DNA of 64,000 nt from the IMG/VR virus record IMGVR_UViG_3300033233_001970, one strand, 5' to 3'. The stretch's first letter is position 1. Each line of letters begins with the position of its first letter. The stretch is from a virus. Taxonomy: Duplodnaviria > Caudoviricetes. This document shows, in pieces, positions 17,165 to 60,925 of this stretch. The notes below the pieces were generated by a model, which worked only from the letters and a program-made list of their open reading frames with translations, was not told the DNA's origin and made no database searches. Made by a program: the position numbers and the translations under genes.

Positions 17165-18130
17165 CTACACCTTCCGGCTTACGAGATCCGCGATCTCACC
17201 AGCGAAATCCTGGCGCGCGTCGTCGTAAATTGACAGTGTGCGCCCATCAGCATGGCGGCTGAACTTCTGCACTTTCCTTGTGTTACCGTTCGTCTCGTCG
17301 AGTGCTGTCGTGATCGCGGTATGGCGCAAACCGTGAGGCCGAACCTTTCCGACATCCGCTTTTTTGCCGAGATTTTTAATGATCGCATACACAGCGGAGC
17401 CGGTAAGCGCGTGGCCGTAGCTGTTGCGGTCGAGAGCGATGAACAACGGCCCAGGTTCATTTCCGCGAACGACGAGCCATGCACGTAACGCGTCCTTGGT
17501 TTTCTCAGGAAGCGTAACCCTTTCACGAGCATGTCGCCCTTTCCCGAACACCCATACGATACCTTCTTCGAGGTCTAAATGCTCGAGGTGAAGTGACACG
17601 ACCTCACCGCGACGAAATGCAACATCATGAAGTAGCCGAACGAGCGCCGCATCGCGAACGCCTTTCGAGTCGGTACGTTCCTTCAATGCGTTGATCATTT
17701 TCTTGATTTTATCTTCGCCTGGGCCTCGCGTATCGCGGTACGGCTGCACATCGAGCCCTTCGATTTCGATGTTCCAGTTCACCATGCCGAGCATTCTTGC
17801 GAGTTTCACGATGGATCGAATCGCGGCAAGGCGACGGTTTATTGTTGTAGCTTGCAATGGTTTTTCAGTGGCTTGCGATGTTTTTTCGAGCATGTGCGCG
17901 CGATACCGGAGAACAAGCTCGTTCGCGGCGCCCGCTTCGCGCCGAAGAAGCTCGTCGACGGCGTCGCCGACGGCTGCAAGCTCGAGGAATGCTCGGAAGT
18001 CTTCAAGATCGCGACTGTACGCGCGCAATGTGTTCGGGCTGCGGCCGTTCAGAAACGCAGCAATCAAGCGCTGCGCCACGGAGCCCTCATTGACGAGCTC
18101 TGTGTGAGTGGAAAGCACGAGATCGCTCAT
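17165..18130 (-). CDS. tyrosine recombinase/integrase (XerC/D-like)
   Basis: SAM-like N-terminus (SPNTLRAYSRDL, ATTINRRLAAIRS); catalytic R (AFRRGE), K (GKG), HxxR (HGLRH), H (SRH), Y (SIYDD). Confidence 0.92.
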   Translation of the reverse strand: MSDLVLSTHTELVNEGSVAQRLIAAFLNGRSPNTLRAYSRDLEDFRAFLELAAVGDAVDELLRREAGAANELVLRYRAHMLEKTSQATEKPLQATTINRRLAAIRSIVKLARMLGMVNWNIEIEGLDVQPYRDTRGPGEDKIKKMINALKERTDSKGVRDAALVRLLHDVAFRRGEVVSLHLEHLDLEEGIVWVFGKGRHARERVTLPEKTKDALRAWLVVRGNEPGPLFIALDRNSYGHALTGSAVYAIIKNLGKKADVGKVRPHGLRHTAITTALDETNGNTRKVQKFSRHADGRTLSIYDDARQDFAGEIADLVSRKV

Positions 18131-26824: not shown

Positions 26825-28729
26825 GTGATGGAAGCAGAAGATGTGGAAGTGGAAGAGAACGTCGAAATCAGCGCTGGCCGTACCCGCGTCTACAAGTACG
26901 GTCTCCTTGCGCCTACCGTGAATACCAAGATCGTCGAAGCGCAGATGCGGCTCGCGCACAACTATCGCAATACGCTTGTCGAGATCGAGCGTGGGCGTCG
27001 CAATGCGCAGCGTTCTGTGCTTGCGAAATTCGATCTCTCCGGAAAGGAACAGGCGGTTCTGGCCACAAGAGCGGAGCTCGAAGCTGCCTTGCTCGCGGTG
27101 CGCGTTGCGCGTGCAGCCTCAAGATCACGTTCCGAGACCGAAGATATGCGTGATCGGGTCAAGGCGGCGAGAAAATCACACAAAGAATCGACGAAGGCTC
27201 TCGCGATCGAGCGCAAAGCGCTCCGCGCGGACACCCAAGTTCAGCTCGAGATCGACGTCATCAACGATCGTGCGGCTGAATTGCGCCGCAGCGCGCGTGC
27301 GTTTTCGGGCCTCGGAGAAATGGGGCCTCACTTCGGTGCGTGGGGCACCTATTTGCTGATCGAAGCCGCCGACATGGCAGCGCGAAAAGCTCCATTCTTC
27401 AAGGATTCGGAGCCCAACGACCCGAGATTCGTTCGATTCGAGGGCGAAGGTCAGGTGAGCGTACAGCTTCAAGGCGGCATGAGCGTCGAGGATCTTTTCA
27501 GCGGCTTCCATGCACGCGCACGTGTCGACGCCGTAAACGAAAATGCGTGGTTCGCGAAGAAGCGCGGAGACCGCAGGCGCGCCTCGCGCACGATGCTGTC
27601 GCTTCGGGTCGCCTCCGAAGGTCGCGATCCCGTGTGGGCGACGTGGCCGATGATCATGCACAGACCGATTCCAGAAGGCGCGAGTATTCAACGCATCACC
27701 GTGAGCCGTCGAAAGTACGGCCCGCGTGAAGAATGGTCGGTCGATTTCACACTGAAACTCTCCGACAAGACTCCGGCACGCACAAAATGCGGGCAATCGG
27801 GCGTGGTGACGATCGATCTCGGGTGGCGAACGATCGGCAACGAGATCCGTGTCGCTGCGTGGCGCGACGATCAAGGAAAACATGGTGAGCTACGCCTCGA
27901 CGCGCGTGCTGTTTCGGGATTGAAGAAGCCGGACGAGCTCCGATCGCTTCGTGACGAAAAGTTCAACTTTGCGCGGGCTGCTCTCATCGAAATATTGGGA
28001 AAGGTAACCATTCCCGATTGGCTTCGAGAGGAGATTTCACACATCGCGCAATGGCGCTCGCAGGCGCGACTCGCAGCGCTCGCTCGAAAGTGGAGCGATC
28101 GTCACTTCGAAGGTGACGACGAGGCGTACGCGATGATCGAAACATGGCGCTACCGCGACCACCATCTGTGGGAATACGAATCTGGACAGCGCATCGGTTC
28201 GTTGCGGCATCGGCGCGAGATCTATCGACGCTTCGCCGCCGAGCTCGGGCGGAAGTACAAGACACTTCTTCTCGAGGATTTCGACCTGCGCGGGGTCGCG
28301 ACACGGGCACCGACCGAAGAAGGAGCAGAAAATCTCGTTGCTCGTCGGAACCGGCAACTCGCCGCCGTCAGTGAGCTTCGCGGCTGCCTCTGCAATGTTT
28401 TCGGCGAAGACGCGTTGAAGGTTTCTCCTGAAAATTCGACGCACATTTGCAACGCATGCGGAGCGGTCGAGGAGTTCGACGCAGCTTTGAAGATCGATCA
28501 CACGTGTTCGGCGTGCGGAGCGACGTGGGATCAGGACGACAACGCGACGATCGTGCTTTTCGAGAGGTGGCGCGCCGCGAAAAAGGCGGAAGCCGCTCGC
28601 GCGGCTGAAAATCCGAAGGATGCTAATGTGGTACGCGAATCAAGATGGGTTCGGGCAAAGAGAATGAAGGAGGCAAAAATCGAAAGACAGAACGCTGCTC
28701 GCAACAAGGATCCGAAAGACGAGGAATGA
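26825..28729 (+). CDS. cas12m: type V-M CRISPR effector (Cas12m / former V-U1)
   Basis: 634 aa; VYKYGL...QMRLAHNYRNTLV, RFEGEGQVSVQLQ, MHRPIP, RuvC-I TIDLGWR, QWRSQARLA, RuvC-II LLLEDF, Zn ribbon CNAC/CSAC, RuvC-III WDQDDNA; array begins 19 bp after the stop. Confidence 0.88.
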   Translation: MMEAEDVEVEENVEISAGRTRVYKYGLLAPTVNTKIVEAQMRLAHNYRNTLVEIERGRRNAQRSVLAKFDLSGKEQAVLATRAELEAALLAVRVARAASRSRSETEDMRDRVKAARKSHKESTKALAIERKALRADTQVQLEIDVINDRAAELRRSARAFSGLGEMGPHFGAWGTYLLIEAADMAARKAPFFKDSEPNDPRFVRFEGEGQVSVQLQGGMSVEDLFSGFHARARVDAVNENAWFAKKRGDRRRASRTMLSLRVASEGRDPVWATWPMIMHRPIPEGASIQRITVSRRKYGPREEWSVDFTLKLSDKTPARTKCGQSGVVTIDLGWRTIGNEIRVAAWRDDQGKHGELRLDARAVSGLKKPDELRSLRDEKFNFARAALIEILGKVTIPDWLREEISHIAQWRSQARLAALARKWSDRHFEGDDEAYAMIETWRYRDHHLWEYESGQRIGSLRHRREIYRRFAAELGRKYKTLLLEDFDLRGVATRAPTEEGAENLVARRNRQLAAVSELRGCLCNVFGEDALKVSPENSTHICNACGAVEEFDAALKIDHTCSACGATWDQDDNATIVLFERWRAAKKAEAARAAENPKDANVVRESRWVRAKRMKEAKIERQNAARNKDPKDEE

Positions 28730-28748
28730 TTGGGGTTGTGGGAGACAA

Positions 28749-29827
28749 GTTGCAAAGGTTGCTCGACACCTGGGAGATCGAGACGTGCTACCGGTGAAGA
28801 CGATTTGGCGTCCGAAATCGTTGCAAAGGTTGCTCGACACCTGGGAGATCGAGACAGTTGGAGCGCGAGATCCGCGCCGTCGCATTGCGGAGTTGCAAAG
28901 GTTGCTCGACACCTGGGAGATCGAGACTACGTGAACACCGTGTGCTCGGAGCCACTCGGCGAGTTGCAAAGGTTGCTCGACACCTGGGAGATCGAGACAG
29001 CACCCAATTGATCGTCTGCGGCGTCGACGACGCGTTGCAAAGGTTGCTCGACACCTGGGAGATCGAGACAAATCCTCGGCGGCCCGCCTCGTCCTCCGCT
29101 ACCTCGTTGCAAAGGTTGCTCGACACCTGGGAGATCGAGACACGGCGAATGAGAAGACCGCCGCACGCGAGAGCGCGGTTGCAAAGGTTGCTCGACACCT
29201 GGGAGATCGAGACTCGGCGAAGCAACGTCAACGCGCCGCGATGCGCCGCGTTGCAAAGGTTGCTCGACACCTGGGAGATCGAGACGTGCTGACGGACGAC
29301 TTTCATTCGGCCGGACGAATCGTTGCAAAGGTTGCTCGACACCTGGGAGATCGAGACTCTCGCCGTTCGGATCGAGACGGTTGCTCGACACCTGGGAGAT
29401 CGAGACTGGTGCCAGAAGGGTTTACGGCGTCGCAAAGGTTGCTCGACACCTGGGAGATCGAGACATCCCGTTAGCGTGTGAAGCCTAAGGCGTCGCGCTG
29501 TTGCAAAGGTTGCTCGACACCTGGGAGATCGAGACGATGCCGATCAGTCGCGCGAGGACGCGACGTCGGCTGGTTGCAAAGGTTGCTCGACACCTGGGAG
29601 ATCGAGACTCTAGGTTGAGCTCAGCGATCTTCTCTTCGACTTCGGTTGCAAAGGTTGCTCGACACCTGGGAGATCGAGACAAGTACCCAACGAAGTACCA
29701 CCTCGCGCACGCCGGGCTGTTGCAAAGGTTGCTCGACACCTGGGAGATCGAGACAGGTAGGGGCGCAAAGGCCGCTGCCCGACGTCAAGGAGTTGCAAAG
29801 GTTGCTCGACACCTGGGAGATCGAGAC
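28749..29827 (+). CRISPR. CRISPR array, repeat GTTGCAAAGGTTGCTCGACACCTGGGAGATCGAGAC (36 bp), 16 repeats
   Basis: 14 perfect copies, one single-mismatch copy (29429) and one 5'-truncated copy (29379); most spacers 35-38 bp; AGGT/ACCT stem plus CTCGA/TCGAG pseudoknot as in Cas12m-type repeats. Confidence 0.98.
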
Positions 29828-29884
29828 CCGGCGCGCGGGTCGCACTACGGCGCCGCGTCGCATGTTGCAAAGGCCGCGTCGCAT

Positions 29885-30396
29885 GTTGCAAAGGTTGCTC
29901 GACACCTTCTAGTTCGAGACGCGCTCGCCGGTTGCTCGACACCAGAAGATCGAGACAGCTTGAATCCCTGCGGTTCTTGCAAAGGTTGCTCGGCACCATT
30001 GAAGATCGAGACTTCACGATTCCCGAAAAGGCAGCTCGACGCCTTGAGCTCGAGACTTCTTTGCGGCCATTTCTCAAAGGTAGCTCGATACCTAGAAATT
30101 CGAGACGAGTCCCGTCTCCAGCAAAGGCTGCTCGACGCCTTCGAAGTCGAGATAGGAGAGCTTCGGAGTTGTAGAATCGTGACAGCAAAGGTAGCTCGAC
30201 GCCTTCGAAGTCGAGGACTACTACGACAACGGACCAGCGGCGGCTCGATGCCGTGAAATTCGAGACTAAGCCACTTGTAAAGGTAGCTCGACACCTTGAA
30301 GCTCGAGACTACATGGGCAGAATCGTAACGGCAGCTCGATGCCTAAAGATCGAGAATCGCCCTCGCAACGGCAGCTCGACGCCTAAAGATCGAGAC
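29885..30396 (+). CRISPR. tail of 11 diverged repeats with short intervening spacers
   Basis: repeats ending at 29920, 29956, 30012, 30056, 30106, 30153, 30218, 30266, 30309, 30356 and 30396; all keep GG-x-x-GCTCG...CC...TCGAG. Confidence 0.85.
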
Positions 30397-30411: not shown

Positions 30412-31020
30412 ATGAAATTCTCCGACATCAAACTTCTCTCCGTGGGCGACACGATCGGCATGGTCGGCGCCGTCTATCTCGACGAGAAAGAAGAGCAGCT
30501 CATCGTCTTCTTTTTTCCTGGCGAGTACGACGGCGCGCCGAGGCTCGGTCTCACCATCAAGCCCGAAGCCGTCGATATGACGGTCGAGGATTGGACGGCA
30601 TTTCTTCGTCAAACCGACTTGCTCGAGACGGAGATTCTCGCCAAGGAATCGAAAGAGAGTGCGACGTTCTACAAAGCGATCGTGCGCAAGAGTCAACGAA
30701 GTATCGATCAGATCGTGTCGTGGCGCGTCTACAAAAGAGATCAATACCGTTGTAGATATTGCGGCAACGACAACATCCCGCTCACGGTCGACCATCTGGT
30801 TCTTTGGGAAAAGGGCGGCCCAAGCACGGAGGCGAACCTTCTGAGTTGCTGCAAAAAATGCAACAAGGTTCGCGGCAACATGCCGTACGCGGAATGGCTC
30901 ACGCACGCGCACTATGCTCGTGTTTCGGCCAAGCTCGACGACACAACGAAGCGCGCGAACGAAGCGCTCGTCGCTACGCTCGACAAGATCCCGCTCAATG
31001 TGCACATCAAGTCGAGGTAA
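30412..31020 (+). CDS. HNH endonuclease with unrecognised ~100-aa N-terminal domain
   Basis: VYKRDQYRCRYCG...LTVDHLV...GGPSTEANLLSCCKKCNKVRG. Confidence 0.88.
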   Translation: MKFSDIKLLSVGDTIGMVGAVYLDEKEEQLIVFFFPGEYDGAPRLGLTIKPEAVDMTVEDWTAFLRQTDLLETEILAKESKESATFYKAIVRKSQRSIDQIVSWRVYKRDQYRCRYCGNDNIPLTVDHLVLWEKGGPSTEANLLSCCKKCNKVRGNMPYAEWLTHAHYARVSAKLDDTTKRANEALVATLDKIPLNVHIKSR

Positions 31021-60430: not shown

Positions 60431-60896
60431 ACGCGATCCTGACCCGTACGTGATGTACATCGTCGTGCGTAGGAGCTTGAAGCTCTCCGCTGGCAAAGTC
60501 GGCGCGCAGTGTGGTCACGCCGTCCAGTACCTCATGCAAGAATTTTTGCCCGAGAGATGGCCCACCAGAGACGAGGCGAAGCTCCTGTCACGAAAGGTTG
60601 CCGGAACGCTTACCGACGAAGAACGCACCCGCTTCGAGGCGTTGGAAAAAGAGAAAGACGACCGATACGAACGTTGCGTTACGGCCGGCGAATGGCTTAA
60701 GGGCGATCACGCGAAAATCATCCTCGGCGCGAGCGACGACGAGTTCATGAAAGTGCAGCTCGAGAACGAGCACTTCTTCATGGTCGTCGACCTCGGGTAC
60801 ACCCAGGTTGCGCCTGACACTGAGACGTCGCTCGGCTTATGGCCGATGAGAAAAAGCGCAGCGTCGGAAACCGTCAAGACATTGAGACCGTTGTAA
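60423..60896 (+). CDS. pth2: peptidyl-tRNA hydrolase, PTH2 family
   Basis: MYIVVRRSLKLSAGKVGAQCGHA...W...KIIL...VVDLGYTQVAPDTETSLGLWP. Confidence 0.88.
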   Translation: MTERDPDPYVMYIVVRRSLKLSAGKVGAQCGHAVQYLMQEFLPERWPTRDEAKLLSRKVAGTLTDEERTRFEALEKEKDDRYERCVTAGEWLKGDHAKIILGASDDEFMKVQLENEHFFMVVDLGYTQVAPDTETSLGLWPMRKSAASETVKTLRPL

Positions 60897-60925
60897 AGGC
60901 AGCTCGACGCCGTAAAGCTCGAGAC
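60890..60925 (+). repeat. solitary CRISPR-repeat-like unit GTTGTAAAGGCAGCTCGACGCCGTAAAGCTCGAGAC
   Basis: 36 bp; 27/36 identical to the array consensus and 31/36 to the diverged repeat at 30274-30309; both stems retained. Confidence 0.85.

Follow-up and report, generated by a model that had tools for sequence, protein, structure and literature searches.

A phage-borne type V-M CRISPR locus with an intact D-E-D RuvC triad and a predicted binding-type effector

Does a phage-borne Cas12m protein that keeps a canonical-looking Asp/Glu/Asp (D-E-D) triad in its RuvC domain cut its target DNA, or does it bind the target and silence it? The question is raised by a locus in IMG/VR virus record IMGVR_UViG_3300033233_001970 (Duplodnaviria; Caudoviricetes), from which a stretch of 64,000 nucleotides (hereafter the window) was analyzed. 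Here a single effector gene, cas12m, is followed directly by a CRISPR array (Table 1). An earlier note on this DNA had proposed a cutting or evolutionarily intermediate effector. We instead favor, with a probability of roughly 80%, a phage-borne D-E-D type V-M locus with binding-type action; RNA-guided binding and silencing, by analogy with the orthologs assayed so far, is its likeliest mechanism.

Judged from sequence comparison and a predicted fold, the window protein is a full-length type V-M Cas12m. Its Pfam match is the Cas12f1-like TNB zinc ribbon alone. A phmmer search of the PDB aligned residues 23-576 with 23vw_A, deposited as ‘CRISPR-associated DNA-binding protein Cas12m’ (E 1.9e-92), and also returned GoCas12m (8.5e-26), MmCas12m2 (1.3e-25) and UnCas12m4a (1.1e-22), whereas TnpB and Cas12f reached merely 0.13-0.44, confined to the zinc ribbon. 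With a profile of 32 relatives, five Cas12m structures scored between 7.5e-141 and 6.5e-53, and TnpB-like proteins 1.4e-9 or weaker. The AlphaFold2 model (predicted local distance difference test 86.6; predicted template modeling (TM) score 0.78) has the bilobed Cas12m fold, with a coiled-coil REC insertion, long helices at 34-159, a RuvC domain with a helical insertion, and the TNB zinc ribbon. A fold search with this model gave full-length matches of about 610 columns to MmCas12m2 (8HHL; TM scores 0.78/0.83) and GoCas12m (8PM4; 0.78/0.81), whereas Cas12f, TnpB and any other Cas12 remained at or below 0.41 by query length. An identity as a TnpB or IS200-IS605 nuclease was rejected: the protein has 633 residues with REC insertions, not about 400, a regular CRISPR array follows its gene, and with the NCBIfam TnpB models it reaches 15-17 bits where the cut-offs lie at 100-425. 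The description of the protein as Cas12m-like is thus borne out by sequence, predicted fold, repeat scaffold and the absence of an anti-repeat (the last two described below), and both the sequence and the fold searches place it inside type V-M.

The 634-residue translation of the open reading frame (ORF) at 26825-28729 (+) is free of internal stops, and its TGA stop ends at 28729. The ATG at 26828, with GAGGAG 7 nt ahead, is the likelier start. The resulting 633-residue form is already on record (P0002, from a 246,055-bp contig); the exact form with the GTG start is unmatched. Relatives of this protein are numerous, with 3,626 clusters at 50% identity for E <=0.001 and 2,016 for E <=1e-30. The top named bacterial matches, at 41-47% identity, lie on contigs of Polyangiaceae and other metagenome-assembled genomes (MAGs), and these may be phage contigs put into bins. 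In viruses, an alignment-based scan of IMG/VR recovered 72 distinct loci with relatives, many on contigs of 100-206 kb, and in 46 of them an array lies just downstream of the gene; a single-protein scan of the same database returned no relatives. A further homologue (37% identity, 88% of the query) lies at 112522-114177 (-) of GenBank KX853510.1, the 197-kb Virus Rctr197k from an anaerobic methane-oxidizing enrichment culture, where it is annotated merely as ‘similar to transposase’. Our literature search found no publication on Cas12m4a or Cas12m3.

The catalytic-site residues are readily located, and the triad is intact as the earlier note had read it: the RuvC motifs are VVTIDLGWR (D331), TLLLEDFDL (E484) and ATWDQDDNAT (D571, in 634-residue numbering). 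The DxNA motif (N573-A574) is present, and the TNB zinc ribbon comprises Cys542, Cys545, Cys561 and Cys564, the last three invariant and the first found in >=90% of the aligned sequences. Among the 224 nearest relatives, D-E-D occurs in 181 and the third Asp (D571) is kept in 222, the other forms being N-E-D, N-A-D, H-D-D, N-D-D, P-A-D and others. The IMG/VR relatives give a similar picture (D-E-D in 48 of 65 proteins), and the closest solved relative, 23vw_A, is D-E-D by its printed alignment (IDLGWR, VLEEF, WDQDYNA). A tree of 286 tips infers D-E-D at its root and calls for at least 34 changes of the triad, compared with 49-61 when the labels are shuffled; N-A-D and D-E-H forms occur even inside the nearest 11 tips. 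As these sequences have it, D-E-D is the normal, majority and inferred-ancestral state of this branch, and no peculiarity of this ortholog. Since the first two triad positions have been replaced again and again, the family persists without a canonical site.

Published work bears on what such a triad implies. In the part of Wu et al. 2022 that is cited in PMC10442227, Cas12m falls into four clades, two of which (clades 3/4) are of D-E-D/N-E-D types. Bigelyte et al. 2024 (PMC11013384) examined eight orthologs, of which four were D-E-D, two H-D-D and two N-D-D; none cleaved double-stranded DNA (dsDNA), and six of the eight showed binding that depended on a protospacer adjacent motif (PAM). In the same study, purified MsCas12m, itself D-E-D, cleaved neither target nor collateral DNA or RNA, and its processing of precursor CRISPR RNA (crRNA) was independent of RuvC. 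Omura et al. (PMC10442227) converted MmCas12m2 from H-D-D to D-E-D, and cleavage was not restored. The triad is therefore repeatedly dispensable, and it is no predictor of cutting wherever it has been assayed. The window protein lacks the non-canonical triad (H-D-D, N-D-D and the like) that defines some Cas12m clades, not the whole family; its membership still stands, because Wu clades 3/4 and four of the eight orthologs of Bigelyte et al. are D-E-D. The background on which the cutting proposal was built, a non-canonical H-D-D site as the known state of Cas12m, was thus incomplete: D-E-D clades and non-cutting D-E-D orthologs had already been published (PMC10442227, PMC11013384).

The proposal itself, in which the RuvC site is catalytically active and this ortholog cuts or nicks its target DNA, deserves a direct comparison with these data. 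All the expected parts are there, from D331/E484/D571 and N573-A574 to the four zinc-ribbon cysteines; the D-E-D form is retained in about 80% of relatives and D571 nearly throughout; and Omura et al. raised a possible two-metal hydrolysis for the D-E-D clades (PMC10442227). However, all four of the D-E-D orthologs assayed are without dsDNA cleavage, MsCas12m is without collateral activity, the D-E-D version of MmCas12m2 is inert, and the closest solved relative carries the same triad and was deposited as a DNA-binding protein. At least 34 replacements at the first two triad positions, nearest neighbors included, would be unexpected if cutting were selected. We consider an active nuclease unlikely, and a binding effector remains our preferred reading.

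A binding effector of this family would be guided by a crRNA whose scaffold lies in the repeat. Counted from the 3' end, the repeat holds two interleaved stems, stem 1 at -29..-26/-17..-14 and stem 2 at -23..-19/-7..-3, positions that agree with the stem and pseudoknot published for PmCas12m and MmCas12m2 (PMC10442227 for MmCas12m2). Over 33 distinct repeat sequences from related phage loci, stem 2 is paired in 94% of cases, as against 29-38% with its 3' arm shifted, and uses two to four pair types per position; stem 1 is paired in 77%, as against 42-55%, with three to four pair types per position. From this stem layout and pairing it follows that the handle lies 5' of each spacer and that the array is read in the cas12m direction. 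The window holds no reverse-complement copy of the repeat (anti-repeat) beyond chance 10-15-mers, which fits the mode of Cas12m that would work without a trans-activating crRNA (tracrRNA). A consensus scan found no sigma-70-like promoter and no terminator between cas12m and the array, a weak hint that the two may be co-transcribed.

Table 1. Coordinates of the Cas12m locus and of related features in the window.
Feature	Position	Strand	Details
cas12m gene	26828..28729	+	ATG start, 633 aa; in-frame GTG at 26825 gives 634 aa
Junction, stop to first repeat	28730..28748	+	19 nt, TTGGGGTTGTGGGAGACAA; GAGAC motif 2 nt ahead of the repeat
CRISPR array	28749..29827	+	16 copies of the 36-nt repeat GTTGCAAAGGTTGCTCGACACCTGGGAGATCGAGAC; 13 spacers of 35-38 nt; same direction as cas12m
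Broken unit in array	29358..29428	+	13-nt spacer remnant, repeat with altered start, 22-nt spacer
Decayed repeat tail	29828..30396	+	Variant repeats, irregular and mostly short spacers; trailer end of array
Solitary repeat scaffold	60896..60925	+	AAGGCAGCTCGACGCCGTAAAGCTCGAGAC; both stems intact; 31 kb from array
Tyrosine integrase	17165-18130	-	

The array itself is largely uniform: 14 of its 16 repeats do not differ at all, another departs at a single position, and the remaining one lacks its first 8 nt. The latter belongs to the broken unit: in place of those 8 nt stands the 3' end of another repeat, and we take the unit for the scar of a deletion within the array. The earlier note had drawn the end of the locus at 29827, the final base of the last perfect repeat; that boundary omits a decayed tail that continues to about 30396. 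Within the tail, some ten repeats that have diverged, set apart by short spacers of irregular length, occupy 29885-30396, and the tail ends 16 nt ahead of an HNH endonuclease gene (30412-31020). Some variant stems of the tail (e.g. AAGGCAGCTCGACGCCTT) are closer to the repeats of other loci (L043, L055, L069, L070, L079) than to the window consensus. A degenerate pattern of the repeat scaffold matched 22 times in the window and never in 100 shuffles. Over both strands of the window, its sole match outside the array is the solitary scaffold, which is placed between genes and probably belongs to the same Cas12m system.

The 19 bp between gene and first repeat (28729 and 28749) are confirmed, and this tight junction recurs across the family, an observation that is new here. 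Of the 46 downstream arrays from IMG/VR, 15 start at most 25 nt after the stop, clustering at 19-21 nt, and the closer relatives L117 and L118 show the same spacing. Several loci have in common the last codons (GCT CGC ... GCG GAA TGA), followed by bases resembling TTGGGG and, 2-3 nt short of the first repeat, a GAGAC-like motif. The gene end and junction (28697-28748) are also conserved as DNA over distant loci (L002, L007, L035, L037, L056, L062, L071, L117 and L118). The shared junction may be a compressed leader, a candidate minimal leader or processing signal, with a putative role in transcription, processing or integration.

A second assembly of the same phage allows a comparison of two states of one array. 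L001 (ENA ERZ27248239, a 119,573-bp contig) is an independent assembly with an identical Cas12m protein. The 11,957 nt that lead up to and include repeat 1 agree with the window at every base, and from spacer 12 onward L001 shows 1 mismatch in 9,945 nt; this sole base difference in 21.9 kb lies in spacer 14 (window 29716 G, L001 12138 T). Between these stretches, L001 joins repeat 1 straight to spacer 12, so that 11 cas12m-proximal units are missing and four distal spacers and the whole decayed tail are kept. To find such an array-end polymorphism between near-identical assemblies is new here. A difference at the proximal end matches polarized uptake; recombination between repeats or collapse in assembly would look alike, and we judge the chances about even. 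One public DNA run and no RNA run were listed as containing the locus; the Logan contigs of that DNA run break at both array ends (28784, 29885) and are uninformative on spacer heterogeneity. Searches of JGI metagenomes and IMG/VR with the junction and the repeat turned up no further copy of this phage's array.

The array may be static cargo with no ongoing uptake, the shorter L001 form being an assembly artifact or a simple deletion, and we give this the same odds as its negation. Metagenome assemblers often collapse CRISPR arrays, recombination of repeat 1 with the repeat before spacer 12 would yield the exact L001 form, the window's own array bears a deletion scar, and no Cas1 was found near the locus or in three complete relatives. 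However, the units missing from L001 are precisely the cas12m-proximal ones, the four distal spacers and the tail being kept, as polarized uptake predicts; only about 1 in 8 random repeat-to-repeat deletions would begin at repeat 1; and the flanks agree closely, the lone downstream mismatch lying inside a spacer. A bolder proposal, which we hold to be unlikely, is that the array still grows at the cas12m-proximal repeat through an adaptation complex supplied in trans, with the last cas12m codons and the GAGAC-like junction of 19-21 nt serving as the leader, and with the D-E-D site perhaps in an undescribed catalytic role. If true, it would reveal a family of effector-only CRISPR systems that stay adaptive. 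The suggestion in the earlier note that the locus borrows host adaptation machinery accordingly has one suggestive sign in its favor, the array-length difference at the cas12m-proximal end, and is not established by it.

What, then, would the guides target? The 13 regular spacers, with a mean G+C content of 63.6%, exceed the 57.0% of the phage (P = 0.002 by resampling; a value this high arises in 0.2% of the sets drawn from phage 36-mers), another observation that is new here, and the spacers therefore come from DNA of higher G+C than the phage itself. Such spacers would fit targets in the host or in rival elements and speak against self-derived spacers. No protospacer was found in the window, in isolate phages, or in five genomes that hold Cas12m relatives; exact 22-24-mers of spacers 1, 2, 3, 8 and 13 were unmatched in IMG/VR; and a plasmid search returned one 35-nt match at chance level (E 0.3). 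In 401 genomes of the nearest MAG's phylum, the best match was 29/31 for spacer 12, which lies in an unannotated ORF that neighbors Hsp70-like and Band 7 genes; this match has AGC as its 5' flank, offers no plausible PAM, and was judged a chance match. Use against competing elements or the host, as had been proposed, is hence in keeping with the GC-rich spacers, but the searches of IMG/VR and of the 401 genomes, which had been suggested as a check, yielded no convincing target. A repeat-like candidate was rejected as well: in L112, a genome of the Myxococcota phylum, 29 nt at 1504-1532 are 93% identical to the repeat, and these encode part of a Cys-rich repeat (GDGCSDTCEIE) instead of forming an array, probably a coincidence.

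The array remnants also invite another explanation, namely that the phage uses the system to control its own genes no less than for defense, with Cas12m binding or processing scaffolds in phage transcripts and the array largely a relic. The solitary scaffold, intact and between genes 31 kb away, would speak for it; the variant repeats of the tail keep their stems despite short spacers, the array carries scars of internal deletion, and the searches made found no protospacers. Set against this, 14 identical repeats and 13 spacers of regular length are what a maintained array would have, the spacers exceed the phage in G+C and have no match in the window, and a single solitary repeat is thin evidence for a regulon. 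We regard gene control as improbable, if less so than an active nuclease, and retain an array-guided, binding-type system as the preferred reading.

The genomic setting agrees with a minimal locus on a mobile element, as had been proposed: an effector and an array, with no adaptation genes found, on a phage-like contig. No Cas1, Cas2 or Cas4 Pfam match occurred among the 38 called genes within +-10 kb, nor among the 30 larger window ORFs scanned (all of those >=250 aa), small distant ORFs of Cas2 or Cas4 size having been scanned only in part; the reported lack of cas1, cas2 and cas4 holds over this range. Three CheckV-complete virus genomes (153-206 kb, one with terminal repeats) carry a relative and gave no Cas1 match, whereas control genomes did. 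The neighborhoods of the close relatives P0014 (from a contig of 178 kb), P0008 and P0005 include DnaB-like, DnaG, NUDIX and ORFan genes and likewise gave no Cas1, Cas2 or Cas4 match within 10 kb. The window contains mostly ORFans, along with HNH, NUDIX, radical SAM and DnaJ-domain proteins and a phage-type ATP-dependent DNA ligase (phrog_114, 1.1e-49), and no cellular housekeeping genes were recognized in it. When 25 kb spanning the locus were compared with isolate phages by megablast, no match appeared.

Some features of the surrounding DNA are recorded in their own right. A neighboring gene at 23042-24187 (+; 381 aa) has only weak transposase-like matches (phrog_4285, 7.8e-10; PDB 9mty_A, 1.9e-4). 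At about 16-17 kb of the window, G+C shifts from 60-69% with negative AT skew before to 55-59% with positive skew after; the change coincides with a coding-strand switch at the integrase gene and may mark a module boundary. In a DUF6745 gene (ORF 664-2298, -; 69% G+C), a short motif recurs at multiples of 12 nt within 1420-1885, seen as a chance-level blast ladder at 1420, 1432, 1456, 1468 and on.

We envision the following sequence of events. A promoter lying upstream of cas12m or within it would drive a single transcript of the gene and the array, which Cas12m would then cleave inside the repeats to release crRNAs about 50 nt long. The resulting ribonucleoprotein would find matching DNA flanked by a PAM and stay bound, blocking transcription or replication of the target rather than cutting it; the targets would probably be DNA of higher G+C than the phage, from the host or from competing elements. 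If acquisition still goes on, new spacers would enter at the cas12m-proximal end via an adaptation complex supplied in trans. Several points weigh against this interpretation. D-E-D triad, DxNA motif and zinc ribbon have all stayed intact, and about 80% of the branch conserves them, a pattern suggesting that the site retains some function. The D-E-D orthologs assayed so far are not close relatives, and the nearest solved structure is identical to the window protein at well below half of its residues. The proposed co-transcription draws on a simple scan for consensus sequences that matched neither a promoter nor a terminator; the searches found no protospacer that would point to a target or a PAM; and no phage structural gene was identified in the window, so that the term phage rests on the 246-kb contig, its gene content and the IMG/VR relatives.

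With this locus, a large and mostly unnamed population of phage-borne D-E-D Cas12m systems gains one well-preserved example, and the finding supports the view that large phages may use binding-type RNA-guided proteins against rivals or hosts. It also sharpens a puzzle, that of a non-cutting family in which four members out of five retain a RuvC site of canonical appearance. The array-end polymorphism raises the question of whether arrays without cas1 and cas2 still take up spacers. As a candidate tool, the effector would be one more compact, predicted naturally non-cutting DNA binder.

How the locus relates to the closest known systems can be set out one by one. Cas12j/CasPhi of huge phages, in the portion of Pausch et al. 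2020 cited in the MV-1 preprint (bioRxiv 10.64898/2026.09.14.751636), likewise combines a single small RuvC effector with an array, no Cas1 or Cas2, and a presumed use against competitors; CasPhi, however, is an active nuclease of another Cas12 branch, with a TM score of about 0.25 to our model as against 0.78 for Cas12m. MmCas12m2 (8HHL/8HIO) and GoCas12m (8PM4) share the whole-length predicted fold, the coiled-coil REC insertion, the crRNA layout and presumably binding and silencing, yet differ in sequence (E about 1e-25; structural identity 22%) and carry His/Asp/Asp where the window protein has Asp/Glu/Asp. Also close is the set of D-E-D Cas12m systems (Wu clades 3/4, as far as PMC10442227 cites them; MsCas12m and others, PMC11013384; 23vw_A), with about 580-630 residues, D-E-D in xIDLGWR, LxE[DE]F and WDQDxNA, a zinc ribbon of the form CxxC...CxxC, an array next to the gene whose 36-nt repeats carry a pseudoknot scaffold, and no tracrRNA candidate. 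Those loci lie on a bacterial chromosome or plasmid, whereas the window locus lies on a phage-like contig of about 246 kb, with no adaptation genes found and its array 19 nt after the stop; moreover, 23vw_A (577 aa) is without the basic C-terminal tail of about 55 residues that the window protein has. Another parallel, likened here by description only, is MvCas12m of myxophage MV-1, presented as the first Cas12m in a phage (bioRxiv 10.64898/2026.09.14.751636): it is phage-encoded, has about 610 residues and a D-E-D triad (D305/E463/D555), and comes with an adjacent array, no cas1, cas2 or cas4, no tracrRNA and no protospacers found. MvCas12m has 8 spacers, compared with 13 regular ones here, and the window locus adds a long decayed tail, a solitary repeat and a larger genome. 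A phage-borne, adaptation-less Cas12m has thus already been described, and next to it the window locus is real but ordinary.

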